From Verrucomicrobiia bacterium (lineage in GTDB: Bacteria > Verrucomicrobiota > Verrucomicrobiia > Limisphaerales > UBA11358), in NCBI GenBank assembly GCA_036490655.1, contig DASXDM010000029.1:146670-210669 (forward strand): a stretch of DNA of 64,000 bases, in the 5' to 3' direction. The position numbers and the translations under genes were made by a program. Shown here one piece after another: positions 3,145 through 64,000 of this stretch; the first letter of the stretch is position 1; the number at the start of each line of letters is the position of its first letter. The notes below the pieces were generated by a model. That model made no database searches and was not told where the DNA came from. It saw only the letters and a program-made list of their open reading frames with translations.

Positions 3145-4278
3145 TCAATGCAGAATAACATCGTAAAAACGGGCGTTGTTCGTCGCGTGGGTGTCGGTGA
3201 AGCGATATTGGCCAATCGGGCTTTCTACAGGAGTGCCCAAAGTGTTCCAATTTGTGAGCGCCGCGCTGAGGTTGGTCGTCCCGACGATGCTGAAACCCAT
3301 TCCGACGGTATTGGTGAACGTCAACTGAATCGTCTTGGGACCTGGCTGGCTCACCGCCTGGGTCGGCGGTTTGTAACTCAATTCAAAGCCGAGAATATTC
3401 AAGGTGATCAAGTCGGCCGAGGAGAGAGTGTCTCGATTGCCATCAAAGGAAAATGCGTCGTATGAATCCGAAGGTGTGCCTGGCGAATCCCAATCCTGAA
3501 TATCACCCTCGGGGTCGGAATTGAAATACTTCAAAGCGGTCACACCGTTATTGATGGAAAAATAGACATCCACATCGTTTGGATTCAAGGTCCGGCCGGC
3601 GCTGTTGGTGAACCGGAAGAGGTCGTAGGGCATATAATAAGTATCCAGGTCGTACGTTGAACGGCCCATCACTTCGGTGATTTCGTGTTCAGCACAGCCA
3701 ATGAAATCAAATTCACCCACGACGGCACGGTTCGTCGCGTTGAAAGTGAATGGAGTGCCGGGATCATCTGAAAAACCCACTGCGCCGTCCGAAGTCGGGT
3801 CCGTGGGGGAAATCCCAAAAACACCCAACGCCTTCGCTTCCGCGCGCGGAAGCAGCCAGGTGGATCCATCGGGGGTGGGATCCGTCAAAGGTAAACTGGC
3901 GTAGGCATTGGTTTGGGCGGAGGTTTTTCGAAGCGCCCATAAATCGTTGGTCACCTGCTTATACCCAAAACCGTTGGTGTATACCAATGAGGTTGAACTG
4001 GCGCCCAGGGCGATTCCGGTGCTGAAGGGATTGCTCGCGCCGTTGGTTCCCCAATAAACAGTGATGTTGATGGTGATCGGATTGGTATAAAGCGATTCGA
4101 TCGTATCCACGGCTATGGCAAATGCCCCCTCGATCTGCGAGGCGTTGGTGGCGGTGGTCACAGTCGTATCGTAGGTGGGATTGATGATCAAAGCACTGGC
4201 GGGAAAGCGGAATAGGAATAAAAACATCGCAAAAAAGGCCGCTCGTTTCGCAATTATGGGGACGCGATTGTTGAACAT
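3145..4278 (-). CDS. Secreted protein with an HExxE metalloprotease-like motif and a C-terminal FY-type module
   Basis: 377-aa ORF with a hydrophobic N-terminal signal-like segment (AAFFAMFLFLFRFPASA). It carries GCAEHEITEVMGR and the C-terminal tail ...TNWNTLGTPVESPIGQYRFTDTHATNNARFYDVILH. The family assignment is uncertain. Confidence 0.55.
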   Translation of the reverse strand: MFNNRVPIIAKRAAFFAMFLFLFRFPASALIINPTYDTTVTTATNASQIEGAFAIAVDTIESLYTNPITINITVYWGTNGASNPFSTGIALGASSTSLVYTNGFGYKQVTNDLWALRKTSAQTNAYASLPLTDPTPDGSTWLLPRAEAKALGVFGISPTDPTSDGAVGFSDDPGTPFTFNATNRAVVGEFDFIGCAEHEITEVMGRSTYDLDTYYMPYDLFRFTNSAGRTLNPNDVDVYFSINNGVTALKYFNSDPEGDIQDWDSPGTPSDSYDAFSFDGNRDTLSSADLITLNILGFELSYKPPTQAVSQPGPKTIQLTFTNTVGMGFSIVGTTNLSAALTNWNTLGTPVESPIGQYRFTDTHATNNARFYDVILH

Positions 4279-4340
4279 AATTTTGTGGGTTTCCTACTGC
4301 ATAAATTTTACCACCGTTCGTGACCGCGTCAAAGCGTTTG

Positions 4341-5039
4341 TCAGCGCAAGGGATATTCGCTAAGAATTCTTATTGTGTCAGCCGACGCATACCAATCTCC
4401 TTCAATCAGTTGTAAAGAGCGGACATGGGTCGCGCCAAAATCGTCATCCCGGTGCGCTTCCAGGAAGGATTTTAATCCTTTCCAGTCCATTGGGGTGGAA
4501 AAACGCGCAAGGGTCAGATGCGCCGCAATGATTTTGTAGCGTCGATCCAAATCATCGCCGAGACCATTTTCGGAGAATGCCTCACGCAAATCATTACGCA
4601 ATCGGCTCAACTCATCGCCAACAGGGAAACCCTGGATCATTATCGCGTCAGGCGAAGCGGTCACGCCCTGAAAATTGATGGAAAATGCAGGACGATTACT
4701 TAACACGTTGTCCAAGGTGGCCAGATATTCCGGCAATCTCTTTATGGATGTCTGCCAAAATTCCGAACCGGGAATGACGGCCAACACCGTCACGTGATAT
4801 TCTTCAGGTGTGTAAAAATGTTGGTCCGGCGCGACGGCGGCAATCTTATGCGAAAACCTTTGGATCCCGGCGCAGACTTCGAGACCCGGACGGGCGACCA
4901 GGGTGACTCCCCTGCGATTGTCCGCTGCCCGGTTTTTCAGGAATGGGTCCAACGTTGGGCCGCCCTTATCAAAAGACCCGGCTGCTTTTCCCCAAAGCTC
5001 CTCATATAGATCTTGCGCCTGATTTACGCTGCCGGCCAT
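4341..5039 (-). CDS. 2H phosphoesterase superfamily protein (LigT / 2'-5' RNA ligase-like)
   Basis: 232-aa ORF with two H-x-T-x motifs, YHVTVLAV and AAHLTLARF, at the spacing expected for the 2H fold. It overlaps the maf 3' end by 16 nt. Confidence 0.6.
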   Translation of the reverse strand: MAGSVNQAQDLYEELWGKAAGSFDKGGPTLDPFLKNRAADNRRGVTLVARPGLEVCAGIQRFSHKIAAVAPDQHFYTPEEYHVTVLAVIPGSEFWQTSIKRLPEYLATLDNVLSNRPAFSINFQGVTASPDAIMIQGFPVGDELSRLRNDLREAFSENGLGDDLDRRYKIIAAHLTLARFSTPMDWKGLKSFLEAHRDDDFGATHVRSLQLIEGDWYASADTIRILSEYPLR

Positions 5040-5599
5040 GATTCCAGTACTGATTGTAATTGTTCCATGGGCAATCCGATGACATTGCTGAATGAGCCTG
5101 AGATCTCGGAAACGATAAACTCCCCATGGTCCTGGATCGCGTAGGCGCCGGCCTTATCCAGCGGGTTGATTTTCGCCAGATACTCATCGATTTGAGCCGG
5201 GCTGAGCGGGCGAAACACGACATCCGTCTTCACGGCGAAGATCCGTTCATGATGCGGGCGCAAGTGGATCAGACTCACCCCCGTCACCACCTGATGCGTC
5301 TGGCCCTGCAACTGCATCAACATTTTTTTGGCTTCATCGAGGTTCGCCGGTTTGCCAAAGATTTTACGGTCAAGAAAAACCAGGGTGTCGGCGCCGAGCA
5401 CCAGGGCGTCTGGAATCCTTTTGGCGACCACCCGGGCCTTGCGATGGGCGTTAAGCTGGCAGAGTTCCTGGGGTGACAGAAATTCATCAAAAGCCTCCGG
5501 CGCGTCGCTGGGGACGGTCTCAAATTCGAGCTTCAATTGCCCAAGCAATTCCGCGCGTCGCGGGGAGGCTGAGGCCAAAATTAGCGGCGGCAGTTTCAC
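5024..5599 (-). CDS. maf: Maf-like nucleoside triphosphate pyrophosphatase
   Basis: 191-aa ORF with LILASASPRRAELLGQL at the N-terminus and DKAGAYAIQ, both typical Maf blocks. Confidence 0.9.
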   Translation of the reverse strand: MKLPPLILASASPRRAELLGQLKLEFETVPSDAPEAFDEFLSPQELCQLNAHRKARVVAKRIPDALVLGADTLVFLDRKIFGKPANLDEAKKMLMQLQGQTHQVVTGVSLIHLRPHHERIFAVKTDVVFRPLSPAQIDEYLAKINPLDKAGAYAIQDHGEFIVSEISGSFSNVIGLPMEQLQSVLESWPAA

Positions 5600-5665
5600 T
5601 CATCCAATTTATGCATGTCTTTCGAATTGTCGAATGCTTAAAATTGAATACTTGAAAGTGGAAAC

Positions 5666-6220: not shown

Positions 6221-7251
6221 AGGAACGGATCCGCCAGCGCTCGTTGGAACTGGGGTTTGATGATTGCCGTTTCACAAATGCCGCCGCCCCGGACAGTGCC
6301 GCCCAATTCCAAAAATGGGTTGCCGACAAAAAATTCGGGGAAATGGCCTGGATCGAACGCAATGCAGAAAAACGCGTCGAACCCGGACGCGTCCTGGGCG
6401 GTATCAAAAGTGTGATTTGCCTCGCCGCGAACTATGCAAACGCCCACCCCTCAACTTCCAATCTTCGACCGATAGCAAGCAATCCAGGAGTCGTGGCCCG
6501 CTATGCGCGGTTTGATGATTATCATGATATACTCGCTGAACGGCTGAAATCACTGGCGAGATTTGTGGATGACATTGGCGGAGCCGGCACACGCTCGCTT
6601 TGGTACGTGGATACGGGGCCGATTTTAGAGCGTGATTTCGCCCAACGTGCCGGCCTGGGCTTCGTCGGCAAGCACACCAATCTTATCAGCCGTAAATCGG
6701 GCAACTGGATTTTTCTCGCCGAAATCCTGACGACCGCAGAACTTTCACCGGACGCACCCGAGAAGAATCATTGCGGCAAATGCACGCGTTGCATCGCTGC
6801 CTGTCCAACCGAGGCGATCACGGCGCCATTCGAACTGGATGCCCGCCGTTGTATTTCGTATCTCACCATCGAACTCAAAGGCCCTATTCCTGTCGAATTC
6901 CGCCGCGCCATTGGCAATCGTATCTATGGTTGCGACGATTGCCTGGCAGCTTGCCCGTGGAACAGATTTGCGCAAGAAGGTAAATTGATGAAAGCACATA
7001 CGCGAAACGATTTGGAGCAGCCTGATTTGCTGGAATTACTTTCGCTCGACGATAAACAGTTCAAGAGCCGTTTTACCGGCTCACCGATCTTGCGGACCAA
7101 ACGGCGCGGCTTCCTGCGCAATGTCTGCGTGGCCCTCGGAAATACCGGCGATGCCACCGCCCTGCCCCATCTCGAAAAGGCCGCACAGGATTCCGAACCG
7201 CTCATCGCCGAACATGCGCACTGGGCCATCGACGAAATAAAATCACGCTGA
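6217..7251 (+). CDS. queG: tRNA epoxyqueuosine(34) reductase
   Basis: 344-aa ORF with two 4Fe-4S cysteine clusters (CGKCTRCIAACP and CDDCLAACPWN). The overall layout matches QueG, including the C-terminal HEAT-like tail. Confidence 0.9.
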   Translation: MKERIRQRSLELGFDDCRFTNAAAPDSAAQFQKWVADKKFGEMAWIERNAEKRVEPGRVLGGIKSVICLAANYANAHPSTSNLRPIASNPGVVARYARFDDYHDILAERLKSLARFVDDIGGAGTRSLWYVDTGPILERDFAQRAGLGFVGKHTNLISRKSGNWIFLAEILTTAELSPDAPEKNHCGKCTRCIAACPTEAITAPFELDARRCISYLTIELKGPIPVEFRRAIGNRIYGCDDCLAACPWNRFAQEGKLMKAHTRNDLEQPDLLELLSLDDKQFKSRFTGSPILRTKRRGFLRNVCVALGNTGDATALPHLEKAAQDSEPLIAEHAHWAIDEIKSR

Positions 7252-7395
7252 ACATTACAAAAATGTCACAAACGCGAAAAAGCAGCGAAAAGCGTATTAA
7301 AAAAGATTTTTTATTCTCGCTGTTACAATAAGTTTAACTTGGTTTTTGACCCGGTTAAAGTTATTGTTTCCGGACAACCCTTAGAACCCGTGACC

Positions 7396-13300: not shown

Positions 13301-14115
13301 CGGCTGCCGAATTATTGAGCGACGATGTTTTGGAATCCATTTCCGGGTTTACCAATATCGTGGCGGTTGCTCCCTACATGTATTCGCCCCTGGCCATTCG
13401 GACCAATGGCATGCTTGTCTTTGGCGCCCAGTTGGCTGGCGGGCCTCCCAACCTGGGGTCGATAACCAATATAACCAATGCCGTTGCCGTCACGGAAGGC
13501 AATGGCTGGAGCATGGTGTTGAAAGCCGATGGAACAGTGACCGCCTGGGGAGGCAATACATATGGGCAAACCAACGTGCCACCAAATGCAACTAACGTTA
13601 TTGCCATCGCCGGCGGCTTTTATCATGGGCTCGCGCTCAGGAGCGATCACACTGTTATTGCCTGGGGACTTGATGCCAATGGCCAGACCAATGTGCCTCC
13701 CGGCTTGAGCAATGTGGTTGCCATCGCCGCCGGCTTTTATCATAGCCTTGCTTTGAGAGCGAATGGCACTGTCGTGGCCTGGGGCCAAAATACCTACGGC
13801 CAGACCAATGTGCCTCCCGGTTTGACCAACGTTATCGCCATCGCCGCCGGTGCGGCTCATAGCATGGCGTTGATTGGAAATGGGCCGCCCGTCGTCCAGG
13901 CATCCATCTCATCGCCCGCCGCCACTACCAATGGTTTCAGCCTGGCCGTGCCCAGCCAAAGCGGCAGGCTCTATATCCTGCAATTTGAAAACACTTTGTT
14001 CGACACCAACTGGAATTCCCTGCCGCCAGTGCCGGGCAATGGCGGGGTGTTACTCTTGAGCGATCCAACCGCAACCAACAATCTCCAGCGCTTCTATCGT
14101 GTTCAGCAATGGTGA
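7396..14115 (+). CDS. Giant secreted multidomain protein: Ig-like repeats, right-handed beta-helix, two RCC1-like repeat blocks, C-terminal FYRV module
   Basis: ATG at 7396 gives the signal peptide MRRSKTIFRVFLPVILAFLSLIFLAPGQAAAA. Ig-like modules (QPxNQT...YQW...NGT...Y.V.V.N..GS..S..A.LTV) lie at ~7.5-8.0, 9.9-11.0 and 11.8-13.07 kb. A beta-helix of ~20 coils (GGG...STL.NC.L..N) spans ~8.05-9.9 kb. RCC1-like repeats (WG.N.YGQTNVP...NV.AIAAG..HS.AL) lie at ~11.0-11.8 and 13.07-13.87 kb. The tail is ...NNLQRFYRVQQW. Confidence 0.85.
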   Translation: MRRSKTIFRVFLPVILAFLSLIFLAPGQAAAASITTQPQNQTNILGSNAVFTVIGGGQTPLLYQWSFYTTNLTNSAHIGGATNATLTITNITTADAGDYKVVVKNTHGSVTSSIVTLTVLLPATIGTQPANQAVNWMGNAAFAVGATGTGQLNYRWLFNGTRLSDNSQISGSATSLLNISGALPANIGNYQVVVTNNYGSVTSIVATLNVTNVFHYVNLNNSAPQSPYTNWSTAATNIQSAVDVANAGDSIFVTNGMYTLGNRVTSTTTNCVVVTNAISISSVSGPAQTVINGGGTNRCIYLTNGCSLSGFTITNGMTPENGGGIFCSSTNVVITNCVVAGSSAYIQGGGVYQGTLFTCVLTNNYAGGNAQGYPAGGGAGSSVLYNCTVSWNSGGSASGGGLFNCTANQCVLTNNSTGANAGGGAAQSTLNNCLIANNSGCGAGDFSTLNNCTLIGNTAPIYGGGASYSTLTNCTLIANIGVWGGGAEQSTLYNCTLISNSVSSTGGAAYICTLSNCTLIANTASSYYGGGVDQSTLYNSTLCNNFAGQWGGAAYNSTLYNCTLSNNISDGEGGGAYSCILSNCVLTANEATYGSAYGGGAFNSTLITCLVSNNGAYAGGGAYGGSLSNCVIIQNDAVLGGGALGSTLVQCSVLNGQAQYGGGLNSCTASNCILTGNLAIIGSTGAGAGAYTSSLYNCMLYSNRSFFTGGGAALSTLINCTIASNTAYGITGGGGGGVTSCTLTNSIIYFNTTGGNYSGSNNMSWCCTTPLPNDGSGDVVVGVNNTSSAPLFVNLANGNCRLYPGSPGIDSGNNAVVPVTVDLDGNARIVNGTVDLGAYEFQNSPFIEVQPTNQTVPLGAYVTFSVTTYGPGLTYQWQFNGTNILGATSSTYVLSFAQYNSAGTYTVTVTNSYGVASSSNAVLTVVPPTPPSFTLQPTNQTVAVAANVTLAAAASGAPPAAYQWYFNSTALFDNGHYFGTGTSTLQIQSVPTNYTGNYFVVATNTGGSVTSSVANITVLIPPAITLQPTNQTVLASSNVTFSVQVTGSAPLGYQWYFSGGQYNGPLTDGGQFSGSTGTNLTISNLQWTNNGTYYLLATNLVGTAASTVVTLTVLSPPVLTAPFVNQVGMVFNNTTLALSVTGTPALYYQWQKNGTNLSDGGNISGSSGPALTITNSQLVDSGQYTAIVTNAYGALTNTATLTVVPIFDWGNDVLLPPADATNVVGIASAGIELSADFALRADGSLIGWGNDAYGIVDIPANATNIVSVTGGPEQTMAIRRDGTVVTWGGGGTNVPDAATNVVAVAIQGYTGCMALRQDGSLVTWNGVPTPPANATNLIAIGAGFYQCLGVQQNGTIIAWGSNYYGEGAPPANATNVIAVSGGMNGAYPYSAALRADGTEIGFGYAPGLPAAATNLVTIAAGNSHVMALRQDGTAFGYSGPTTTNCIAIAVNGYGFHDVVLTQDPRVTMPPAIIQSPLGAVIQTNQTFLLLSQAVGAMPMQSQWYLNGTPLAGQTNGWLLLPAIQTSQGGAYQIIYTNNFGSATSSPAIVWTPPAFTSPPATMVAFGSNAIFSETLAGTSPFGYQWYFNGTPLSDGGFVSGSATASLIVSNFQSANLGNYTLAVTNLAGSVTSSPALLTIVNPLVTTQPQGQSVLGGATVDFSVAATGQQPLAYQWEFDGTNILNATNDPLVLSNVLVSQSGLYSVIITNSYGTIVSSNATLTVTALSFARQPVNQTVLGGGTANFTVSINGQQPVFYQWEFDGTNLPGATNDPLVITNVLVSQSGLYSVVVTNAYGSVVSSNGTLTVMPLAFKTQPANCITWPSGSATFSVIVSGQAPFGFDWQCNGVDVPGMWTNVLTLTNVQFSQFGTYDVIVSNAYGSVVSTNAFLSLSQVAVWGGLDGESNLAAGLTNIIAIAGNGQSVVDCLALKANSTVIHWPRTNSVTISNILSMAGGGGEGPAMVLTVSNTAAELLSDDVLESISGFTNIVAVAPYMYSPLAIRTNGMLVFGAQLAGGPPNLGSITNITNAVAVTEGNGWSMVLKADGTVTAWGGNTYGQTNVPPNATNVIAIAGGFYHGLALRSDHTVIAWGLDANGQTNVPPGLSNVVAIAAGFYHSLALRANGTVVAWGQNTYGQTNVPPGLTNVIAIAAGAAHSMALIGNGPPVVQASISSPAATTNGFSLAVPSQSGRLYILQFENTLFDTNWNSLPPVPGNGGVLLLSDPTATNNLQRFYRVQQW

Positions 14116-14200
14116 GCCACTGATAATTCGCCTCGTCTCCACTTGAAAAATGTCACTGATGGTGTACATTCTTTCATCAGGCAGGGTTAACCAGAATTCC

Positions 14201-15673
14201 ATGAATAAATTAATACAAAAAGTCCATGTCATCGTCGTTTTGTTCCTTGGTTTTATTCCAGTATTTCAGGCCACGGCGCAAACGTTCACGAACCTCCACA
14301 ACTTACTTTTCGCTGATGGAGCCAATCCGCACGCGGGTTTGATCGTTTCAAGCAATGTTCTGTTTGGCACTACGTCAAAAGATGGTGACGGGAGTTCATC
14401 AGATGGTTTTGGCACGGTATTCAGAATGAATACTACCGGCACGAGCTTCACGAATTTGTATGCGTTCAACCAGGGAACCGATGGTGGCGATATCGAGGGC
14501 GGCGTTGTCCTGTCAGGCAATACGCTGTATGGAACAGCGTATTTTGGCGGCGCGTCGAACGACGGTTGCATTTTTGCCATCCATACCGATGGCAGCGGTC
14601 GGACGAATATCTATAATTTTTCGACCGAATTGCCGCATGTGCCATTTTACACCAATAGCGATGGAGCGTACCCGTACTGCGGCCTTGCTTTGTCTGGCAA
14701 CACTTTGTTCGGCCCAGCAGAAGGTGGCGGCGCCCAGGGTTGGGGAACTCTTTTTGCCATCAATACCAATGGCACCCCATTTACCAACCTTGTCAATTTC
14801 GCCATCACGAATGGCCAGAATCCCGATTACAGCGTCGTTTTTTCGAGCAATGTGTTGTATGGAGTAACGGGTGGCGGCGGTACCAACAATTTTAGCGGTA
14901 ATGGCACGATATACCGGGTCAACGCAGATGGATCGAGCTTCACCAACCTTTACTATTTCTCTGTTCCGCTTTACGGCCCTGTTCCGGCGACCAACGCCGA
15001 CGGTGGTGATCCTTTGGGGACATTGGCTCTCTCTGGTAATACGCTCTATGGAGTCACCTATGACAACGGTTATTATGGCAATGGCACCATTTATAAAATC
15101 AATACCGACGGCTCGGCTTTCACTGTTATCCACGAGTTCACCGCCACTAACGGGATCAACTCTACCAATAGCGACGGTGCGTATCCCGAAGCCGGTTTGC
15201 TTTTATGGAGCAATGCCCTCTATGGGACTGCCTATCTCGGTGGAAAATTCGGCAATGGCACCGTGTTCAAACTGAATACTGACGGCAGCGGTTTCACGAC
15301 CTTGTACAGTTTCTCAGCGACCAACGCAGACATCAGCACCGACCCAACAATCTTCACCAATTCTGATGGCGCCCGGCCGCTCGGCAGCCTGATTGTTTCT
15401 GGAAGTACATTGTACGGCACCGCCAGCGTGGGTGGCACTAATGGTTTCGGCACCATCTTCAGCATCACCTTGCCAGTACAATTATATATCACTCGGTCCG
15501 GGACGAATGCCATCTTGTCCTGGCCGGTCGGCGTCAGCGGTTTCCAACCCCAGTACGCCACCAATATGGTATCGCCGGTGACCTGGAATACCATCATCTA
15601 CTCCGGCACCCAGAACATCGTGACCAATCCCATCACCAAGACCAACTTGTTCTTCCGGCTGATGCATCCGTAG
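14201..15673 (+). CDS. Secreted Gloeo_Verruco (GloVer) tandem-repeat protein with C-terminal FFRL module
   Basis: ATG at 14201 gives the signal peptide MNKLIQKVHVIVVLFLGFIPVFQATAQ. There are about 8 repeats of ...G..LYGTT..GG..G.GT.F..NTDGS.FT.LY.F.... The tail is NAILSWPVGVSGFQPQYATNMVSPVTWNTIIYSG...TNLFFRLMHP. Confidence 0.8.
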   Translation: MNKLIQKVHVIVVLFLGFIPVFQATAQTFTNLHNLLFADGANPHAGLIVSSNVLFGTTSKDGDGSSSDGFGTVFRMNTTGTSFTNLYAFNQGTDGGDIEGGVVLSGNTLYGTAYFGGASNDGCIFAIHTDGSGRTNIYNFSTELPHVPFYTNSDGAYPYCGLALSGNTLFGPAEGGGAQGWGTLFAINTNGTPFTNLVNFAITNGQNPDYSVVFSSNVLYGVTGGGGTNNFSGNGTIYRVNADGSSFTNLYYFSVPLYGPVPATNADGGDPLGTLALSGNTLYGVTYDNGYYGNGTIYKINTDGSAFTVIHEFTATNGINSTNSDGAYPEAGLLLWSNALYGTAYLGGKFGNGTVFKLNTDGSGFTTLYSFSATNADISTDPTIFTNSDGARPLGSLIVSGSTLYGTASVGGTNGFGTIFSITLPVQLYITRSGTNAILSWPVGVSGFQPQYATNMVSPVTWNTIIYSGTQNIVTNPITKTNLFFRLMHP

Positions 15674-19483: not shown

Positions 19484-19489
19484 TCAAAT

Positions 19490-28818: not shown

Positions 28819-28934
28819 GCGACACTGTAATCGTTGACGATGCCGAACTCCAAGACAGGTTTTCAAAAAAGTGATTTTTTGGAAGTCGACTCATTCCAGA
28901 GAGGTTGGGGTAAGAAAAGAAAACTGCTTTTACA

Positions 28935-29564
28935 TCACGGCCCGTTTAACTGAAAAAATAGATTTCCCGCGCCTGGCGTGACGTTGACACCTTCTGTGGT
29001 GCCATTAGTAAAAATGGGATCGCTATTCGTCGTCCAAGTCCCCGTCACCAAATTGCTGTTTTGCAGAACGATAAACCCGCCGGGAGGCACCGGCCAGGTC
29101 AGCATCAGATTCGTGCCGGTCGCCGCGATGGCCACGGATGGCGGCACGAGTGAGATCTGAAAGCTCACATCGGCAAGGTCATTTGTCGCAAGCTCATCCC
29201 CTCCCCCTGCCACGCTGGCCGTTCCGGAAAAAATTCCCACGGGAGCGGACGGATTGATATAAACGCCCATCGCGACGTCGCTGTATGTTTGATTGGAGGA
29301 AAAGATGCCCGGAATGTTTTGAAAGAAAAAATTGGTGTCTCCGGCCAGATAATTGGTCGCCGCATTGGTGAAGCTGAACTGGATGTTGTTCAGATACAGA
29401 TTTGTCAACGAGTTGTTGGTGAACGTACCGATAAAGATCACTTCATTGCTACCGCTCCCAGGCAGCGCTGCCGGGGTGAGTGAAAAAGTCAGGTTCGCCC
29501 GGGCCGGCATGGCCAACAGCGCCAGCGCGGCCAGCAATGCGGGAAGTATCAATCGTGTGCGCAT
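28935..29564 (-). CDS. Small secreted protein with C-terminal FFQL module
   Basis: ATG at 29564 gives the signal peptide MRTRLILPALLAALALLAMPARA. The tail is NLMLTWPVPPGGFIVLQNSNLVTGTWTT...GAGNLFFQLNGP. The start lies 1 nt after the stop of the upstream gene. Confidence 0.6.
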   Translation of the reverse strand: MRTRLILPALLAALALLAMPARANLTFSLTPAALPGSGSNEVIFIGTFTNNSLTNLYLNNIQFSFTNAATNYLAGDTNFFFQNIPGIFSSNQTYSDVAMGVYINPSAPVGIFSGTASVAGGGDELATNDLADVSFQISLVPPSVAIAATGTNLMLTWPVPPGGFIVLQNSNLVTGTWTTNSDPIFTNGTTEGVNVTPGAGNLFFQLNGP

Positions 29565-29565
29565 A

Positions 29566-31119: not shown

Positions 31120-31464
31120 GGTAATCTGTTTAGCACGATAAATTGCCGCAAACAAACTTTTTTGGGTGTTTTTTATCATTTCGTTCAAGAGGCTTGATTT
31201 TTTCTTGCTGATGCCTTCGCCAAGCCCGTAAAAACGGTTAAATTTAATCTTCTTTTCAAATTGAACTCGACACGCCAACCATAGCACGCATGGTGCCAAC
31301 GAAATAAACGTTGAAATGGCTTCTCGGCTACGAACGAAGTCAAAGCTCGCCTACATCAAACTAAACCGCCAAACGCCTTGCCCACCTCGTGGCGCTGTCC
31401 CGGTCAACACAAGGACATTGCAGGAGGTTCTTTCACTCGCAACGTCCGGATCGCTTTCGGTCAT

Positions 31465-31528
31465 GGCGGCGACCCTTTCAACTATGTCCGGACAAAATAA
31501 ACGTGCTGACCACAATCGCAACATCAGA
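31465..31528. repeat. 64-nt repeat module C, copy 1
   Basis: ggcggcgaccctttcaactatgtccggacaaaataaacgtgctgaccacaatcgcaacatcaga recurs at 32030-32093 with 3 mismatches. Confidence 0.8.
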
Positions 31529-32027: not shown

Positions 32028-32029
32028 TT

Positions 32030-47348: not shown

Positions 47349-50300
47349 TTACGGACTGACGAGGCGATAGAACATCGCGTTATTGGTCGTGCTGTTGGTG
47401 ACGAGGTTGTGGTTGGTGATCGTCAAGAGGAGGTTGGTGACTGCGATCCAGTTGGCGGGAACAAGATTGGTGCTGGCGAGCAAGCGATAGGTGCTGGTCG
47501 GCACCGGCCAATTCAAAATCCGGTTCTGGCCGGCGCTGGTGATGGCCAGGGATGGAATGGTGACCTGGGCCACGTGCCCGACGCGAATGGTGTAATTGAA
47601 GGTGTCATCGAGATAAATATTTCCGAAGGGATCGAGCGCGATGCCGTAGGGATAATTAAAGCCGGCGGCGGTGTAAAAGCCATCCGCAGAACCGTAGCTC
47701 CCGGCAAGAGTGGTGACCGCGCCGTTGGTGGCGATTAACCGGATCACGTCATTGCCATCGTCGGCGACATAAAGATTGCCGGCTGAATCGGAGACCAAGG
47801 CGTAGGGCTGGCCTAAAATGGCATTGGTGCCCATGCCATCGCTATGCCCATAAATGCCCGCCTGCCCGGCAATGGTGGTGACAATCCAGTTGGTTCCCGT
47901 GGAATCTTTGGTGAGTTTGCGCACAGTGTCATTGCCGGTATCCGCCACGTAAACATTGCCCGCGGGATCGCAGGCCAGGCCGGTCGGTTGATTAAATCGG
48001 GCCTGGCTGTTGGTGCCATCCGCGCTGCCGGGCTGGCCGGGCGAACCGGCAATGGTGGTCACGGCCCAACTGGAGGTGGCCCCAATGCGGGAGATTTTGC
48101 GGATGACATTGCTGTTGTTATCGGAGACGTAGATATTGGTGAGGCTATCCACCGCAATGCCCCAGGGTCCGGAGAATACGGCATTGGCATTGGTGCCATC
48201 TGCCCAACCGGCGGCACCGGAACCAGCCAGGGTGGTGATCGCTCCCCCGGGAGCTACCCGCTTGATCTGGTTATCACCCGAATCACAGATGTACAGATTC
48301 GAGGAGACATCGATGGTCAGCCCTTCAGGGCCGTTGAAACTGAATTCGGGGACATAATAACTGGCGGTGCCAGTGGGCGTGATTTTTCGGATGGTGCCGT
48401 CGTAGTATTCGGCCACATAAATGTTACCCGCTGCATCGCAGACCATTCCCCAGGGATAGGCAAAAGTGGCATTTGTTCCGGTGCCATTGGCAACGCCAAG
48501 ATTCCCGGTTTGTCCGGCCAGGGTGGAGATGACCAGAGCGGCATTGATCGTCAAAGAGGCGGGCGGCGCGCTGGTCGTTGATCCCTGGCTATTTGATGCG
48601 ACGCAGCGGTAGAGGTCTCCGGACAGGCCCATGGTGGTCAGGTTGACGCCCAGGTTAGTGGTGGTGCTGCCGGCAAAGGTGCTGTTGTTGGATAATGGCG
48701 TCCAATTAGAGGTGCCGACCGCCTGACGCTGCCATTGATAGGCCGGCAACGGATTGCCGCCCGCACTGGCGCCAAAATTCGCGGTCTGGCCGAGGATGCC
48801 GGACTGGCTGGCCGGCGTGAGAGTGAAGGTGGGAGCAATGGGAGGGGCGACGCCGAAGGTGATCTGAACATCCCGATATTCATTGGGCGGGGTGCCACCG
48901 CGGTCCACGGGATAAATGGTGATGCCCTGCCCGCTCGCAGCGGCCACGTCCGTAAAAGGACTGCCGACATAAAGTCCCGCGTCCTGGTCGCTGACGCCGG
49001 TGGTGTTCATGTCCAGCAAATCGCTTTGGCGGGTGTAGTTGTAGCCCCATTGCACATATACCCCATTGGACATGGAGTAGTTATTGGTGAAATCCGTGCG
49101 GCAGGAGACCCAGTAGTTATAGGTGCTGTCTTTGACAATTTTGAGCGCGACCAATTCCCCGGGGGCAGTGGCATAATTATTCTGGTCGAAGGCATAAATG
49201 CGATAGGTCCCACTGGTGGTGACGGTTTTGACCTGCGAATCGGAAACCCAGCCCAAGAGGTTTTTGAACCAGGGACAAAAATCTGTCCCCATATTGTTGG
49301 CGTTATTGGCGCCCATGGTATCGAAATCGTCGCCGTATTCAGTGTCCACACCGGAGGGGCTGATGGGATTGCCGTCGTTCACCTGCCAGAGGTTGCCGTG
49401 GTAAAGGCCGTAGGTATGGCCGAGTTCGTGGGCAATGACACGGAAATCGAATTCGCCGTTACACCAGACTTCTTTGCCGCCGATATTGGCGAGGCCACCG
49501 TAGTTGATCTGGGAATTGGGGAGGCTGCCCATGCTGGCAAAGAACACGATGATGCGGTCGTAGTTGCCAATAGTGTAATTGGCGGCGGCGGCATTTTCGG
49601 CGTCGGAGTGCAGGGTATCATTGTCATCGTTGGTGGCGTAATAGGCGGCGGTTTGCGGCAGGCGATAAACGGAAGCGGTCACAGTATTCGTCATCGAAGT
49701 GAGGCCGTAAGAGCTTCGAATGTAATAAGGGGCGATTTGGGTGTCGGCGATGTTCTGGACGGTGGCGGCCGAATAACCTTCGGGCGCACCCGCCAGGTCG
49801 GAAAAATCCACGCGGATGATCAAAACATTTTTTCCGCCCGTGGTCCACGCGGTCGGTGGATCGGGCTGCTCAGCCCCGGGTGAGGCAGCGGGTTCTGACA
49901 GGACGGCGTCATGGTCCAGGGTGATGCCGGTCAACGGCACATCAAATTGGCTGACGCCGCCAAGGCGTTCACCAAAGGCATGCACCCGATAGGTCTGGGC
50001 GCCAAGCCGCACAAAGCGGCGCAGTGATTCGACTTTCGGTCCGCGCAAGGCGGTCATGGCTCCCTGCACAATAAAATCACCGCGCGTGTTGAAAGGCGTT
50101 TCCAGCTCACGCTGGATTTCCGGCGGCAAATCGGCCGCATTCGTGAGGGACCGGCTGAGGGCGAGGGCGGTTTGCGGATCGGATTCCATCAGGGACTTCA
50201 GCAGAGCGCGGCGTTGGCGGGCGGCGGTAATGCCTTCGGCCACCATGGTGGAACGGACCTGAGGATTGGGTTCGGCGTGGTAGCGTTCCGACCAGTTGGA

Positions 50301-55349: not shown

Positions 55350-58300
55350 TTAGTATTCGAGACGATAAAAGACGCTTCCGTTTGTGGGAGAAAACGGGAC
55401 CGTGACCATGTCAGTGGCCGAGCTGCCGGACACGTTATACCAAGTGGCCGTGAGACCCACCCCCGGTGCGTTGGTCTGCGATTGCAGCGTCCAGCCGGTA
55501 TGATCGGCCGGCCAGCTCAAACTCAATGATCCGCCAGAGACGCTGAACACGATGTTGGTGGGGTTGGGATTCACCGTCACGATCGGGGTCACACTGGCCA
55601 CAATGACCTGGCCAGCGCCAACAATGTTGGTAGTCCAGGTATAAACGACCTGGTTGACAGTATCGGTCGTTTCCAGATTGTAGGCGGTGAATGCACTGGT
55701 CGGACTGACCACAGAGAAGGTATCCCCAACCTGCAAGGCCGCACCCACATTGGTCACGGCGAGTGTGCCGGCGTAGGTGATCCCGCTTGAATCGGACAGT
55801 TTGCTGTAATTGGGCGAGCCGGCCCGGTTAAGGTTCACCAGATAGGTGCTGCCGCTATTCATGGTCACTGAGCCACCGGACACGGTCAGTGTGCCCATGG
55901 GCAGGCCAGGGTTAAGGGTGGCACCCGAGCTGATCACGACGTTGGCAGAAACCGTTCCGTTGCCCGCAAGCCGTTGGCCGCTGTTAAGGGTCAAGGTGCT
56001 GCTGTCGCTGAGGTTTGCGCCGCTGCCGACGGCGAGCAGTGAAGCCCTGGTAAAGGCCCCCGAGGTGTAGATCGGTCCCCCGGTGGTCAGTGCGAGGGTG
56101 CCACCACTGACGGTTACCGGCCCTGAATTCGTGTTGAGGGCGGTCAGCGTCAAGGTGCCACTGCCCACTTTGGTCAAACCGAGCGAGGCAGCCGCGCCAT
56201 CAAGGAAGGTTCCGTCATATTCCTGGTAGGTGTTATCACCACCGACGGTCAACACGGCCGCATTGGTCGCATTGTTGTTGCGAACGGTCGGACCGGCCAT
56301 CCAGGTCGGATACCCGATGTTACCCGAGTCATCAATGCTGCTCAGATCGGCCACAGTGATGTTATTTCCATTCAACTGGAAGTCCCCGCCGGCGTCCTCG
56401 GTCAAGGAACCGGTGCTGACGGCGTTGGTATTGGCGCAACCGATCGCGCCGGAGGTGATCAACGTGGAGGAATATCCCTGGGGCGAGCCGTTGGTAGGCC
56501 CCAACACCAACACAAACGAATTGGTGTTGCCATAAATTTCAAGCTGGTGAGAACCGGAGATAACGGCCTGAACGGTGGCGCCGTTGATGGTTCCGCCGAT
56601 ACGGGAGTCCGACTGCAGGATGATCGAACCGGTAAAGGTGCTGTTGTAGATGCGCAAGGCCCCGGTGTATGGGGGCGGCGTCTGGTCGGCCCAACCGGTT
56701 CCGTTAAGGTAGACGGTCATATTGTAAGGCACGGTCGTGTTGTCGAGATACAACTGGGCGCCGCTGGGCACGTAAACCGTGCTTCCATAGCCAAAGGGAT
56801 CGCCCGGATTTCCAGCGCTGGCATGAAGGGAGGTCGATCCCTGAATGTTGATCGTGCCATTAAAATTGCTGCTGACGAGACCTGAGGCGGTGACAATTGT
56901 GGCGCCACCGGTTTCATTGAAGTTAATGGTGCCACTACCGGCAAACCCGTTTTCAATCGGATCCGCGCCGGTTATGGTCGCACTGCCATAGTTATAATTC
57001 AGGATGGCCGACGGGGAGACGTTGATGATGCCGCCAAGCTCACCGGCGGTGCCCGTACCAGTGCCCAGGGTCAGGGTGGCCCCGTTATTGACAGTTGTCC
57101 CACCAATGAAGGTATTATTGTTCCCGATCGTCAGTACTCCTGAACCCGCATCGACCAACGCGCCAACTCCCGATAATTGCCCGTTCCCGGTGAAGGTATA
57201 AGCTTGTGACGAATTAACCGTGATCAATGTCGGAGTGACATTGTTGGTATCGATCGTCACGGTGGTGTTACCGGAAGTGTTATCAAAGAGGGCATTGTCC
57301 CCGTTGGTGAACAACGAGGTAGCGCCGGAAAGATTGGTAAAGTTCATGCTGGAGAAATCCCAGGTGGCGCCATTGTTCCCCTGCCAGACCAGGGTGGATG
57401 CCGGAATCAAGGTGAGGGTCGCATTGGGCGCGGAAGTGATCGAGTCGCCACAGGGATCGGTCATCACAATATAATAGGCACCAGCATCGCCTGCCTGCGT
57501 GGGAGCGATCACGAGATTGGTGGTTGTCACTCCGGAATCGTCACCGCCATTGGTGAGGGCGTTTCCATTGAGATACCATTGATAAGTATAAGCCGCCGGA
57601 TTTCCGCTGGCTGCTACTGAAAACGTGGCCGTGACATTGGTCACACAGGTGACGGAGGACGGCTCGGTCGTAAAGATGGGCACCCCGATAGAAACGATGG
57701 CGCTTCCAAGCATCGGACCTGATTCCCCGATTGTGTTGGTAGCCTCAATCGTATAGATGCCACTGTTGGTTTCCAGGCCAAAACTAAGCGGGCTCCCGGT
57801 GCCGGCCAGAGATTGGCCAGTGTAAACGTTGTTGGTATAAAGCAAGTAGCTGTTGGTCGTCACTGATCCGCTTAACCCGATGATCGAACCGTTGCAACCA
57901 GTGCCGCTGGTGGTCACAAAGAAGTAAGGTCCCGCCTGGGCCGCCAACCCCGCGACGACGGTGATGTCAGTGATATTATTCGTCCACGCGACGCCGCCTC
58001 CCGTCGCGCGAAAGCCAAAGGCCAGACCGTCAAAATTAGTGGTCATCACATTTGCGCCAGTAACGGTGTTGGCCACATTGCTAAAAAGGATGGTCCCGGA
58101 GGTGCCTACCCCCGTGTAGAGAGCGTTTGAAATCGTGAGCGTGTTCGCCGCGGACAGTGTGATTCTCAATTGGCCGGTATATTGCGAGCCAATGGTCAGG
58201 TTCGGAGTCGGAAAGGTCGTCGGCGACGTACTGGCGAGAGTAGCACCGCTGGGATGCGTATAATTGTATAATAGTTCCTGGTCACTATTTTGTGCAATCG

Positions 58301-58997: not shown

Positions 58998-59867
58998 TTA
59001 TAGGGACTGGCCAGCCTTCAGCACTGGCTGTGTGCAATGGTTATAAAGCCATGCTAAATCCGCGTTGTTGCTCTGTGGCCGCAAACCGGTGGCCTGAAGA
59101 AAGAATGTCGTCCCCCATTTGTGAGGTTGAACATGGCCGTCGGCATAGGAAAACACGGTCACCGCGCCGCCATGCGCCCATTGGGGCATATCGTAAAGCG
59201 TTGGAATGGGGTAACCCTGCGGGGGCCAAAAGAAACCGTCGTTCAAACTGTCATAGCGTTCTTCGAGAAAAACAATCGCATCGCTGGCGTGGAGCCGGAG
59301 AAAACTGGTGTCTTTCTCATAATACTCAGTATTTTCCTGCGTCAAATTATAGCTGATCTGACTTTCCGCAGCGGAAGTAGCCGGGGCGATATACCCGTTC
59401 ATAGAATAGGACCGGTCACGAAGCTGGCTTTGGCCTTGACCCACGGTAGGATCCGCAGGGCAATGATAGATGTTGTAATTCTTGGCGTAAATTCCCAGCG
59501 AACCATCCGGCCCCCACTCAGGGCCCACCAATTCATCCGTGTTGGTGTTATCTGCGCTATTGCCGGCGCTCAGGTTCCCCGCAACCCATGCCGGCCGGGC
59601 GGTAGTCTGGCCGGCGGCCGGTGTTCCACCCGCGTCATCACAATTCGGCGACAGATATCCGTTATAATCCTGGCTATATTCAATCGCTGCCAATTGGAGC
59701 TGCCTGAGATTATTCATGCAACTCGTCTCCTGGCCCTTGACCTTGGCCCTGGCGAGCACCGGCAGGAGGAGGGCCGCCAAAATCGCGATGATCGCAATCA
59801 CTACCAGTAACTCAATTAATGTGAAGCCGAGAGCGCTATGCTTCTTTTTGCAGACTTGTGGGTACAT
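58998..59867 (-). CDS. Prepilin-type N-terminal cleavage/methylation domain protein (DUF1559-like pseudopilin)
   Basis: 289 aa with the class III signal [23 protein letters not shown] and the C-terminal motif [14 protein letters not shown]. It is typical of the expanded PVC-group family. Confidence 0.85.
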
Positions 59868-61481: not shown

Positions 61482-62333
61482 TTAACTATGGCGACGAGAG
61501 CGAATCAAACCCACCAATCCAAGTCCGGCGCCGGCCAGTGCCAGAGCGGAAGGTTCGGGCGCCGCACCCGGAACCAGCTGGAACCCGTTCAAATAGGCGG
61601 CGCTCCCGGCCCCATTTAATTCAAAACTAAAATTTCCTGTAGCGTCAGATTGACCTTGCAGTTCCAACCATGTCGTCCCGGAAGCCATCAGCGAGTAAGA
61701 CCCGGGCGACCCGGTGAACAAGCTCCCAAAGGCGCCATTGGAATTTGCGGTGGTATTGACCGTCGTGCCGGTGCTGGGATCAGAACCCAAGACATTCCCC
61801 GCAGCCAGGGTGATTCCAGCGCCTTGTCCAGATGTGGTCGTGCCGCCTTCAATATAAAGATCAAACGGCGAGGAATCAGCCAGGCCGACGATGTCGTAGG
61901 TAAGATAGTAACCCGCGCTGTTATTATAATTCCTCCAGGCCTGGGCCATCACTCCGCCAGACTGGATGGTATTTTCCCCTATGGCGGAAGCTGGATTGGC
62001 GTGGGTGCTCGTCGTGGTCTGCGTCAGGGAAATAGTGAGCGTCTCGCTAATACTTGTTCCAGCGGAATCATCCAATGGAGAAGCATTAAACAAAGTGTAG
62101 GTACCGGCAACTGTGCCGCTTGCCTTTGCCACGGGAGTTTCATTGAAGAAGTTCCATGTGGTTCCGGAAACCGGCGCTGCCGCGCTATAGCTGTAACCGC
62201 TGGGCGCATTGATGGTTTGAGTTCCGGTCGTGCTTCCCGAAGAGGTCAGGTTGACAAAGATATCCTGCGCCTGGACCCGATGCCCACAAAGGTAAAGTGC
62301 CGAACAATAAAACACGACTTTGATTATTTTCAT
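61482..62333 (-). CDS. PEP-CTERM sorting-domain secreted protein
   Basis: 283 aa with an N-terminal signal peptide. The C-terminus VPGAAPEPSALALAGAGLGLVGLIRSRRHS has the PEP motif, a TM helix and a basic tail. Confidence 0.85.
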   Translation of the reverse strand: MKIIKVVFYCSALYLCGHRVQAQDIFVNLTSSGSTTGTQTINAPSGYSYSAAAPVSGTTWNFFNETPVAKASGTVAGTYTLFNASPLDDSAGTSISETLTISLTQTTTSTHANPASAIGENTIQSGGVMAQAWRNYNNSAGYYLTYDIVGLADSSPFDLYIEGGTTTSGQGAGITLAAGNVLGSDPSTGTTVNTTANSNGAFGSLFTGSPGSYSLMASGTTWLELQGQSDATGNFSFELNGAGSAAYLNGFQLVPGAAPEPSALALAGAGLGLVGLIRSRRHS

Positions 62334-62685
62334 GGTTTGCTTTGATTATGGACTCGCGGCACCGGTGCTTCGGTTTGGGTTTGATTCGATATTACCCCGG
62401 TTCTGCTCCCGGTCACTAAATGTCATCTTGGATTTGTTGCATATCACATTGGAATTGTTGCAGGCATGTGAAGGTTTGGCGCTGCCGTCAGAGGCCGGCG
62501 AATTTCGCGATAAACGGGTATTTGGCTCGTAATGACGAGCGATTTATCGTTTTTGGGGAGCGATTTTTTTTGCCGAGTTGTAATCATCATTCAATCCCTT
62601 TCCCCTGAGGATCTGCGGAATATATTTTTCGACCCTTGACTGCCGGGTGATGGATTGTTTGGGCGCGGAAAAATGAAGAAGATAG

Positions 62686-62881
62686 GCTCTATGTCCCTTC
62701 GGCAGGAGAGAAGCTCCATACCGGTTGGGACGGGGCGGTGATCAATGCTGAATGCGTCATCGCAGGGTTGAAGGGGCTGAAAGAAAATCCGCTCGCGCCG
62801 TTCCTGTCCGCCCGCGGCAAGGCGGTTGCGCCCATTGTTCTCATTCCGCCCGTCCCGGCACCGGCAGCCAGTCGTGAGTAA
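62686..62881 (+). pseudogene. 5'-truncated fragment (last ~64 codons plus stop) of a paralog of the SGNH esterase gene; coding part of direct repeat copy 2 (repeat extends to 62913)
   Basis: It encodes ...YVPSAGEKLHTGWDGAVINAECVIAGLKGLKENPLAPFLSARGKAVAPIVLIPPVPAPAASRE*, against ...YVPSPGEK...VLTPP... in the intact gene. Homology ends abruptly upstream of 62686. Confidence 0.85.
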
Positions 62882-63132
62882 TTCCGGAAACTAAAGTCAT
62901 TAACAATCACATACAGCGGGCTGACCCCTCCCCGGCTTGCGTGGGGCGCAACAGATTTTGACGGATTAAAAAGGCCTCACGCAAAGACGCAAAGGGGATG
63001 AAGAGCGACGAAGACGATGTTTGGGCGGCGCAGCAGCACCGCCCTACCAAATGAAGAGGCGGCTTCCACCTTCGCTAAAGCGATGGCGCGACAGGCGCGG
63101 GTACGTACGCCCCACCACCGTCACTCATGCGC

Positions 63133-64000
63133 TTAGGGTCCGGAGAAACGCAGGCGATAGAAGCCATTGGTACCAACCTTTTCGAGGGGAACGATATATT
63201 GATTGCCGATTTGCAGAGGGGTCACGGGCACGGCCGACCAGACTGCCGGGAACAGGTTGCTGGATTCTTCCAACTCAAAAGAGGAATAGTCCAGGGGCCA
63301 ATTGAGCAGCAGAAAGTTTCCTGAAATTTGAAGATCAACCGAAGGCAAGGCCAGGGCATTGAACGGATTGGACAGGCCGGTGTGACCCAATCCATCATCA
63401 GCCTGCAATACGATATTTGTTCCGGTCTGGGGGATGACGACCATCCCCGTCCAGACACCCTGCATGAAATTGCCGGAAGCCACCGGACTGATCGGAATAT
63501 CATTAGTCGAATCCAGCATGACCGAATCATCATAGGTGAGGACGGTCCCGTTGGTGGCATCCTGTGCGACAATCGTGACCGGGAAGGGAACATTGAGGAA
63601 CCTCGGCGACGGAACGGCGGCCCAACTGAAATGGTCCAAAGGACTGACGGTCAGCAGAGCGTTGGAACTGACGAGACCGTCAACCATATTGGTGACCGCA
63701 ACATCATAATACCCTGCCTCGTTCACCTGGACATCGCTTAGAGTCAACGTGGTATTGGTCGCATCCAAGATATTTGTGCCATCAAACTGCCATTGATAGG
63801 TCACAGGCGTTGTGCTCATAACGGACACATTTAAGGAAACGGTGTTACCCACAAAGGCGGTCTGATTGGTGGGTTGGATGATGATAACCGGTGGGGTTGG
63901 CGTGAAGCATTTGCCTGCGCTCCCGGCGTTGTAAATGGCCTGGACCTCCGCATGCGAAAGCGCACGGTTGTACAACGAAACTTCATCAATGTCTCCCGTG
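63133..64000 (-). CDS. Secreted LamG/Ig-like domain protein with C-terminal FYRL module; 5' part lies right of the window
   Basis: The frame is open to the window edge (...TGDIDEVSLYNRALSHAEVQAIYNAGSAGKC is a typical LamG-domain end). One Ig-like module follows (QPTNQTAFVG...YQWQFDGTNIL...). The tail is NFLLLNWPLDYSSFELEESSNLFPAVWSAV...GTNGFYRLRFSGP. Confidence 0.8.
   Translation of the reverse strand, partial: TGDIDEVSLYNRALSHAEVQAIYNAGSAGKCFTPTPPVIIIQPTNQTAFVGNTVSLNVSVMSTTPVTYQWQFDGTNILDATNTTLTLSDVQVNEAGYYDVAVTNMVDGLVSSNALLTVSPLDHFSWAAVPSPRFLNVPFPVTIVAQDATNGTVLTYDDSVMLDSTNDIPISPVASGNFMQGVWTGMVVIPQTGTNIVLQADDGLGHTGLSNPFNALALPSVDLQISGNFLLLNWPLDYSSFELEESSNLFPAVWSAVPVTPLQIGNQYIVPLEKVGTNGFYRLRFSGP

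Follow-up and report, generated by a model that had tools for sequence, protein, structure and literature searches.

Do the exported proteins encoded in one 64-kb stretch of a Verrucomicrobiota chromosome end in a genuinely shared element, and if so, what is that element and what might it do? The stretch (64,000 nucleotides, positions 146,670 to 210,669 of contig DASXDM010000029.1, assembly GCA_036490655.1, Verrucomicrobiia bacterium of the Limisphaerales; hereafter the window) had been read from its letters by a model, and this sequence-only reading proposed that seven otherwise unrelated secreted proteins share a C-terminal module that could be a sorting or secretion tag. Here, we describe this module, called the tail below, as a family of ~70-residue beta-sandwich domains that, judging from structure models and profile comparisons, derives from the fibronectin type III (FN3) fold and retains A, B, C, C', E and F among its strands. 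The tail is fixed at the extreme C-terminus of Sec-exported Verrucomicrobiota proteins (from Verrucomicrobiia, Limisphaerales and Pedosphaera-type metagenome-assembled genomes, MAGs), with many copies per genome. It may be a localisation handle, a reading that is weighed below against three others.

The seven tails and their carriers

All seven open reading frames (ORFs) are present in the window, with C-termini identical to those quoted before. The tail modules (p1 to p7) are:

3148..3366, minus strand: p1; carrier ORF 3145-4278, signal peptide and NF038122 HExxE metalloprotease; a divergent 'FTN...NWN.LG...RFY.V' subtype with terminus ...ARFYDVILH
13888..14112, plus strand: p2; carrier ORF 7339/7396-14115, a giant with nine Ig domains, beta-helix, choice-of-anchor Q and RCC1 repeats (Pfam/NCBIfam); terminus ...QRFYRVQQW
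15473..15670, plus strand: p3; carrier ORF 14150-15673, signal peptide and GloVer 'choice-of-anchor' tandem repeats; terminus ...NLFFRLMHP
28938..29141, minus strand: p4; carrier ORF 28935-29564 (209 amino acids, aa), signal peptide and a ~120-aa domain; terminus ...NLFFQLNGP
47352..47555, minus strand: p5; carrier ORF 47349-50417, signal peptide, M6/metzincin-like protease, Ig and NHL propeller; terminus ...AMFYRLVSP
55353..55562, minus strand: p6; carrier ORF 55350-58910, signal peptide, Ig and PATR repeats; an 'LSWPADHTGW...NGSVFYRL' subtype with terminus ...SVFYRLEY
63136..63345, minus strand: p7; carrier ORF from 63133 past the window end, LamG-like and Ig domains; terminus ...NGFYRLRFSGP (its close relative P0014 ends YYYRLRFSGP)

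The p7 carrier is cut by the window end, and the remaining six are N-terminally complete; all six begin with a signal peptide, as had been claimed. Start codons of p2 and p3 differ slightly from those chosen earlier, and that of p4 most likely lies at 29564. The passengers ahead of the tails are unrelated, with NF038122 (p1), Ig/beta-helix/choice-of-anchor Q/RCC1 (p2), GloVer (p3), M6/metzincin-Ig-NHL (p5), Ig/PATR (p6) and Ig (p7) as library matches; the ~120-aa domain of p4 matched no known family in Pfam or NCBIfam. The HExxE motif noticed in p1 corresponds to an NF038122 match, with H198, E199 and E202 invariant in 93 orthologues.

Alignment of the last 80 residues places the start of the module at a conserved Pro, ahead of an extra N-terminal strand, and gives a length of ~66-75 aa in place of the ~55-60 aa estimated before. 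The rough consensus is P-[ST]-[VL]-x-[IL]-x-x-x-G-x-x-[LI]-x-L-[ST]-W-P-x(4)-G-[FYW]-x-L-[QE]-x-[ST]-x-N-L-x(3-8)-, continued as -W-x-x-V-...-V-x-[VP]-...-N-x-[FY]-[FY]-R-[LV]-x(2-5)-COOH. The F/Y-F/Y-R motif by which the tails had been grouped holds for most of them, with FYD in p1 and FFQ in p4 as departures. A profile of the seven tails, scored against the six-frame translation of the window, returned exactly seven copies, every one terminal, and the next match had an E-value (E) of 0.16.

Since self-hits carry no proof, hidden Markov models (HMMs) were built solely from database sequences, with no window sequence among them, and scored against the window's 937 six-frame fragments. The first HMM (tandem-type), made from the tandem repeats of the metagenomic proteins P0041 and P0042, recovered p3 (E 2.4e-16), p5 (1.1e-13), p7 (1.9e-9), p4 (9.4e-9) and p6 (6.2e-8). 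A second (p6-type), made from 'LSWPADHTGW' fragments, recovered p6 at 1.6e-35 and p3, p5, p7 and p4 at 1.6e-8 to 4.3e-5 (p5 at 1.8e-7). Both missed p1 and p2. The third (p1-type), made from the tails of 118 p1 orthologues, matched p5 (1.9e-4) and p2 (3.2e-4); p2 drops out in a leave-one-out test and is recovered by this HMM only. Profile-profile alignment of the p1-type with the tandem-type HMM (hhalign) gave 87% probability and E 3.9e-6 over 71 columns, and the p1-type subtype is also tied in by its common six-strand topology in AlphaFold2 (AF2) models and by FN3 matches in Foldseek. Pairwise identity among the seven tails is low (21-41%), with three invariant columns. By these sequence comparisons p3-p7 securely form one family, next to which p1 and p2 stand as a divergent sister subtype ('FTN...NW[NT].LG...RFYRV'); p2 is the weakest family member, and p5 bridges the two subtypes. 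The proposed common module is real in that independent HMMs recover p3-p7, and profile-profile comparison and AF2 fold link p1 and p2 to them.

Predicted fold and relation to FN3

The p6 tail, modelled by AF2 from a 44-sequence alignment, is all-beta (predicted local distance difference test score, pLDDT, 87.5; predicted template modelling score, pTM, 0.73), with strands at residues 11-15, 18-22, 30-37, (48-49), 58-62 and 69-75. Full-length p1, modelled from 93 orthologues, reached pLDDT 94.4 and pTM 0.90, with tail strands at 307-313, 316-322, 329-334, 345-348, 357-362 and 371-376. The two models show an identical succession of six strands and bear out the beta-sandwich that the sequence-only reading expected AlphaFold to give. 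The top Foldseek matches in the PDB were FN3 domains for both models (probability 0.99-1.0, template modelling score 0.43-0.59, with weak E-values of 0.018-0.03), among them Tencon variants and the FN3 domains of integrin beta4, LAR/PTP-F, cytokine receptors and the pectate lyase PelI; for p1, these alignments cover the tail portion.

Profile comparison points the same way. The tail profile cross-matches P0049, a protein of 24 classical FN3 repeats, and hhalign against these repeats gave 85% probability and E 6e-6, with tail columns 1-72 on FN3 columns 3-77 of 96. In this alignment FN3 strand A opens opposite 'PTNI', the B-strand Trp lies opposite 'LSW', strand C is matched by 'GW.LQ', the C-C' Trp by the invariant Trp of the tail, and the F-strand 't-F-R-I' of 'YTFRIRA' by 'FYRL', so the FN3 core signature (B-strand Trp, C-strand aromatic, and the Y/F-x-F/V-R-V tyrosine-corner region of strand F) is present in FN3 order. 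Compared with FN3 as described by PF00041, the strand A start (P-T-x-L/I), L-x-W, aromatic-x-L/Y-Q, the C-C' Trp and F-R-L/I are aligned. Because the residues of the signature first noticed (L-x-W-P, aromatic-x-L-Q, W, F-Y-R-L) map to core positions of FN3 strands B, C, C-C' and F, this signature reflects determinants of the FN3 fold and not a recognition motif.

The tail also differs from FN3 in several ways. It has ~70 aa where FN3 has ~90, and it is obligately C-terminal and lineage-restricted, whereas an FN3 domain may sit at any place in a protein and is known from every kingdom. Nothing in the tail corresponds to the FG loop and G strand of FN3: in place of the seven-strand order A-B-C-C'-E-F-G, both models show A, B, C, (C'), E and F and then end, the chain stopping 2-6 residues past strand F, usually with Pro. 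No G strand is present in tandem arrays of the module either, because the Pro-rich linker and A strand of the next copy begin 3-8 residues after FYRL. The special traits of the tail are thus truncation after strand F, the C-terminal position lock and a short, often Pro-terminated end.

No model in Pfam-A (2025) or NCBIfam release 20 covers the tail, whether the whole proteins, the isolated tails (E<=10) or all 44 members of the extended alignment are searched. A relation to discoidin/CBM32 glucanases, raised by a PDB sequence search with the tail profile, was non-significant (E ~0.08) and was taken as chance or shared beta-sandwich patterning. Relatives carry, where they have any NCBI name, 'hypothetical protein' or a name based on the passenger, and full-text searches of the literature turned up no account of this module. 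This FN3-like tail domain is therefore uncatalogued despite thousands of members; the earlier impression of an unnamed family was right as to Pfam and NCBIfam, but the tail is recognisable as a divergent FN3-type beta-sandwich.

The p1 model bears on a second domain. The catalytic part of p1 (window 3367-4190, the NF038122 domain) is modelled very confidently within this structure (pLDDT 94.4, pTM 0.90), and Foldseek matched no PDB structure to it. The credible PDB matches of the p1 model (probability >0.9) are ~75-90-column alignments to FN3-type or other small beta-sandwiches, presumably to the tail. On this model, the NF038122 catalytic fold may be structurally uncharacterised.

Position, abundance and conservation

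With an extended profile, 1.84 billion representative proteins were searched exhaustively by HMMER, giving 11,647 clusters at E<=1e-3, of which 3,797 reached E<=1e-10, both upper bounds because the untrimmed profile also gathers score on ordinary multi-FN3 proteins such as P0049. When the top 148 representatives were rescanned with a profile trimmed to the module, 147 contained it, and in all 147 the last copy ended <=5 residues from the C-terminus. One copy was found in 143 of these proteins, two in 2, six in 1 and eight in 1. Arrays are therefore rare, and in those of P0041 (x6), P0042 (x8) and P0043 (x2) the last copy is still terminal. The proteins with more than one copy that we looked at individually are:

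P0041, 511 aa: signal peptide, ~70 aa, then six tandem modules and nothing more
P0042, 960 aa: N-terminal tandem repeats that are GloVer-like by eye, then eight modules
P0043, 279 aa: two adjacent module copies
P0052, 2370 aa: one copy at residues 84-153 and a second at the C-terminus; it could be two ORFs joined by frameshift or read-through

For the genome scan, two p6-subtype peptides served as exact patterns, and the taxonomic range given here refers to this subtype only. The scan yielded 327 confirmed matches, and the best 79 loci among them come from ~40 MAGs, nearly all of which bear a Verrucomicrobiota label (Verrucomicrobiia, Limisphaerales, Pedosphaera or 'subdivision 3'), one MAG (JOPF050) supplying more than 20 loci. 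Six loci (L007, L027, L028, L060, L067 and L076) come from MAGs labelled Bifidobacterium, Bifidobacteriaceae, Candidatus Sulfotelmatobacter or Candidatus Acidoferrum, labels that probably reflect misassigned taxonomy or contaminated bins in public databases. The 79 loci total 833 kb and, scanned with five tail HMMs, contained 106 matching ORFs. The module ends <=6 residues from the stop in 104 of 104 ORFs that have a stop codon inside the locus, 27 of these not having been seeded by the search, and none has an internal or second copy. In the locus ORFs, 2-6 residues follow [FY][FY]R[LMIV], with Pro as the final residue in 59%. Taken together, representatives and locus ORFs give 251 of 251 proteins with a terminal last copy. 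The statement that the module is always terminal thus holds for the last copy throughout, but rare tandem arrays exist. A known domain that also occurs internally had been named as an outcome that would speak against a tag; FN3 superfamily members are indeed internal everywhere, and the tail itself forms arrays, but no non-terminal last copy is found in the 251.

Tail frequency is 7 per 64 kb in the window and 27 unseeded per 833 kb elsewhere. Because the seven window carriers are scattered among ordinary chromosomal genes and form no island, these figures suggest, by rough extrapolation, tails on the order of a hundred or more in a whole genome.

Export is a common property of the carriers. 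A classical signal peptide is present on ~69 of the 76 N-terminally complete locus ORFs; the other seven start mid-repeat and look like interrupted fragments. Passengers in 35 locus carriers include LamG (16), Ig_3 (17) and PATR (12), as well as Big_7, GH27, GH30, GH26, cadherin-like, sortilin/BNR, CBM4_9 and NPCBM domains. Several of the window passengers belong to NCBIfam 'choice-of-anchor' families (GloVer, choice-of-anchor Q), a name that, as we understand it, marks families seen with differing C-terminal anchors in other lineages. Among the loci there is also a large paralogous group of ~1,700-1,950-aa LamG proteins (L014, L032, L037, L041, L056, L062, L072, L073 and others), which share a near-identical mature N-terminus (AQS-AYSNAV-x-SLNPAGYWPMHE) right after the signal peptide.

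Orthologues retain the tail. It is found, in its p1-type form, in 120 of the 120 closest homologues of the p1 passenger (best 120 matches, 47-66% identity), and in 21 of 21 complete p4 homologues (50-83% identity), which end in FYRLKYP or similar. Mean pairwise identities within the two families are:

p1 family: tail 51%, passenger 59%, signal peptide 22%
p4 family: tail 53%, passenger 62%, signal peptide 44%

Because the tail is retained in every orthologue and conserved almost like the passenger, it is a selected, folded part of its carriers and not a linker or decaying remnant.

Possible role and genomic setting

Which known system does the tail most resemble? Its nearest analogue appears to be the folded C-terminal domain (CTD) of the T9SS (type IX secretion system), not the short tripartite signals. 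Like the T9SS CTD (70-100 aa), the tail is a folded beta-sandwich of Ig-like type that occupies the extreme C-terminus of proteins with signal peptides; both occur in dozens to hundreds of copies per genome on unrelated passengers (proteases, glycosidases, giant adhesins), and their passengers overlap in NCBIfam 'choice-of-anchor' families. The T9SS CTD is usually described as seven-stranded. The tail differs in its six predicted strands, in its tandem arrays and in matching no CTD model, the T9SS CTD models TIGR04183, PF18962 and CHU_C giving no match to the tails at E<=10 in Pfam and NCBIfam. To our knowledge, the T9SS is confined to Bacteroidota and relatives, whereas the host of the tail is a verrucomicrobiote, and inspection of the genes in the 64-kb window showed no T9SS genes (PorK/L/M/N, SprA/Sov, PorU/V).

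Sortase-type C-terminal signals are, according to Haft, tripartite, consisting of a motif, a transmembrane helix and an Arg cluster. The tail shares with such signals (PEP-CTERM/exosortase, LPXTG/sortase, GlyGly-CTERM, MYXO-CTERM) the C-terminal position, multiple copies and diverse exported cargo that form Haft's criteria 1 and 2 (seven tails in the window, more than 20 loci in JOPF050, 104 of 104 ORFs terminal). It differs in being a folded soluble domain with no short signature motif, hydrophobic stretch, transmembrane helix or Arg/Lys cluster. A genuine PEP-CTERM protein coexists with the tails in the window, and the earlier remark that its end is distinct from them is upheld by their lack of a transmembrane helix and Arg cluster. 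Across window and loci (~900 kb) there are 113 tails versus 3 PEP-CTERM-like ends, which are ~40-fold rarer. The PEP-CTERM-type proteins, with tails such as ...APEPSALALAGAGLGLVGLIRSRRHS, are:

61482-62333, minus strand, window: PEP-CTERM protein
10415-11017 of locus L050: PEP-CTERM-type protein
6545-7261 of locus L053: PEP-CTERM-type protein

Two further likenesses concern single properties. Chaperone-usher pilins are also beta-sandwiches with no C-terminal G strand and, as the tail would have, an open F edge; in contrast to them, the tail is predicted by AF2 as a confident stand-alone fold, and no donor strand or N-terminal extension and no chaperone or usher genes were identified in the window. 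The pilin likeness is thus an idea about mechanism, suggested by analogy, and not a family assignment. Like the tail, the bacterial pre-peptidase C-terminal domain (PPC, PF04151) is a C-terminal beta-sandwich of ~70 aa carried by secreted enzymes, with duplication in some cases; the tail sits mostly on non-enzymatic giant proteins, and the Pfam PPC HMM gave no match to the tails.

Because the tail is found only on exported proteins, is obligately terminal, is abundant per genome and is carried by unrelated cargo, it has the look of C-terminal localisation domains, and by this analogy we give roughly a 50% probability to its being a handle that the carriers have in common for crossing the outer membrane, for staying at the surface, or for both. 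The carrier would be exported by Sec and lose its signal peptide, and the tail would then fold in the periplasm. The folded tail would serve as a common C-terminal handle that sets the final location of the carriers, being recognised for outer-membrane crossing, for retention at the cell surface, or for both. Speculatively, its free F-strand edge and free C-terminus could be bound by an envelope partner via beta-strand augmentation. In a more specific and more tentative form, which we hold with less than even confidence, the tail would be the cargo signal of an undescribed Verrucomicrobiota outer-membrane export or surface-anchoring system, a counterpart of the T9SS CTD that evolved independently from FN3 and is recognised via its free F strand by a dedicated envelope component.

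Several observations weigh against the localisation handle or its derivation from FN3. The Pfam fn3 model (PF00041) left the seven tails and the 44 alignment members unmatched even at E<=10, while the same model does find internal fn3 domains in 2 of 35 carrier proteins. No Foldseek match to the PDB reached E<=1e-3 for either model, and the missing G strand is read from DSSP strings and the profile alignment. The conserved residues are FN3 core, with no obvious surface recognition motif; no cleavage motif was found at the module boundary, which is Pro-rich like the usual FN3 linker. Tandem arrays (x2, x6, x8) are what structural or binding repeats usually form and secretion signals usually do not, and they suit a structural or avidity role better than a signal. 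No cognate machinery or conserved neighbour gene was found in the 64-kb window or the 12-kb loci, and candidate dedicated export or anchoring machinery is likewise absent from the window genes. Exchange of the tail for another sorting signal was seen in none of the best 120 p1 or 21 complete p4 homologues, a comparison that is uninformative at this evolutionary distance because all of them carry the same tail. Since these closest p1 and p4 orthologues never swap the tail, equivalence of its slot with that of PEP-CTERM is undemonstrated, and the three PEP-CTERM paralogues in the window and loci are too few for comparison.

Some of these observations fit a structural or adhesive role instead. 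The tail could be an FN3-like end-cap with no part in sorting, a stalk, spacer or generic binding domain (e.g. for glycans or matrix) in the form of a lineage-specific variant spread by 3'-terminal domain accretion, and it would be terminal only since a G-less domain tolerates nothing downstream but its own copies. Arrays of 2, 6 and 8 copies do resemble a stalk, every conserved position is an FN3 core position, and Ig, FN3 and Big domains already abound in the carriers. A weak structural likeness to carbohydrate-binding beta-sandwiches (beta-GRP N-domain, CBM56; the discoidin/CBM32 match at E 0.08 being non-significant) adds to this. Yet ordinary FN3, Ig and Big domains in the same carriers are internal, whereas in 251 of 251 proteins the last copy of the tail is terminal. 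There is little reason to expect a stalk on soluble-enzyme passengers (GH26/27/30, metalloproteases) or on a 120-aa single-domain protein. The presence of the tail in every orthologue, conserved nearly like the catalytic domain, and the short conserved terminus with Pro as last residue in 59%, which suggests that the free end matters, also argue against a mere cap, and we regard it as the main rival, possible but rather unlikely.

A removable C-terminal pro-domain or intramolecular chaperone, PPC-like, that aids folding or type II-like passage and is then clipped would account for the size class (~70-aa beta-sandwich), the C-terminal position, the occasional duplication and the occurrence on secreted proteases and glycosidases; a prepilin/pseudopilin-type gene at 58998-59867 shows that components like those of type II secretion systems or type IV pili are present in the organism. 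The tails, however, match neither PPC nor related models in Pfam, most carriers are giant adhesin-like proteins and not enzymes in need of a pro-domain, the boundary has no conserved cleavage site, and the pTM of 0.90 predicted for p1 suggests that the mature fold includes the tail as an integral part fixed in place, all of which makes a pro-domain improbable. Chance or compositional likeness among Thr/Asn/Ser-rich C-termini with no shared element, which pairwise identities of just 21-41%, only three invariant columns and the leave-one-out failure of p2 might have suggested, has next to no probability left and on the sequence evidence is refuted for p3-p7, given independent HMM E-values as low as 2e-16, the same termini in thousands of database relatives, confident and concordant AF2 folds and a six-frame scan with no further window match better than E 0.16.

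Limisphaerales- and Pedosphaera-type Verrucomicrobiota are abundant, mostly uncultured soil and freshwater bacteria whose genomes are full of giant 'hypothetical' exoproteins. We know of essentially no account of the route by which their adhesins, proteases and glycoside hydrolases reach the surface. A large share of these giant exoproteins carries one and the same uncatalogued C-terminal domain, and an HMM of the tail would annotate thousands of proteins and pick out the exoproteome of MAGs. It was phylogenetic profiling that led to exosortase, rhombosortase and the myxosortases, and the tail HMM would give a yes/no profile for such profiling toward a cognate machinery. Should the localisation handle prove true, the tail would be a second, independent folded C-terminal domain acting as an outer-membrane cargo signal beside the T9SS CTD, and a possible surface-display tag; should an undescribed export or anchoring system exist, each genome would have on the order of a hundred or more proteins, secreted or at the surface, that the tail marks, in a phylum among the most abundant of soils. 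If it is not a sorting handle, it is still a clean case of an FN3 variant with its last strand lost and its position locked.

The window is housekeeping in character. The genes among which the carriers lie encode glycogen synthase, SerRS, Maf, shikimate kinase, QueG, alternative complex III, cytochrome c oxidase (COX1/FixO-type subunits), an oligopeptide ABC transporter, TIM, PGK, galactokinase, GH43, AraC regulators and a prepilin-like protein. The last of these (58998-59867, minus strand), with prepilin-type N-terminal cleavage/methylation and weak matches to GspG and Verru_Chthon cassette protein D, adjoins the p6 gene (55350-58910) on the same strand and was placed downstream of it; no link to the tail was established for this gene. 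The p4 gene starts 1 nt past a gene for a 570-aa signal-peptide protein (29566-31299) with no Pfam or NCBIfam match and is followed by one for an unannotated exported 269-aa protein (28009-28866). This three-gene arrangement (28009-31299, minus strand) recurs on independent contigs (L080-L082) and may be an operon.

An Rfam scan of the window gave no match, including in the 1.4-kb gene-poor stretch at 31300-32660. This stretch holds two dispersed direct-repeat families (65 nt x2 with 95% identity at 31464 and 32029; 61 nt x2 with 97% identity at 31967 and 32183) and a 24-nt imperfect inverted repeat. A 193-aa 'ORF' within it (31938-32519) contains the duplicated peptide GEGT.RGRFASIECLEECGR and is, from its sequence, probably a mere translation of the repeats.

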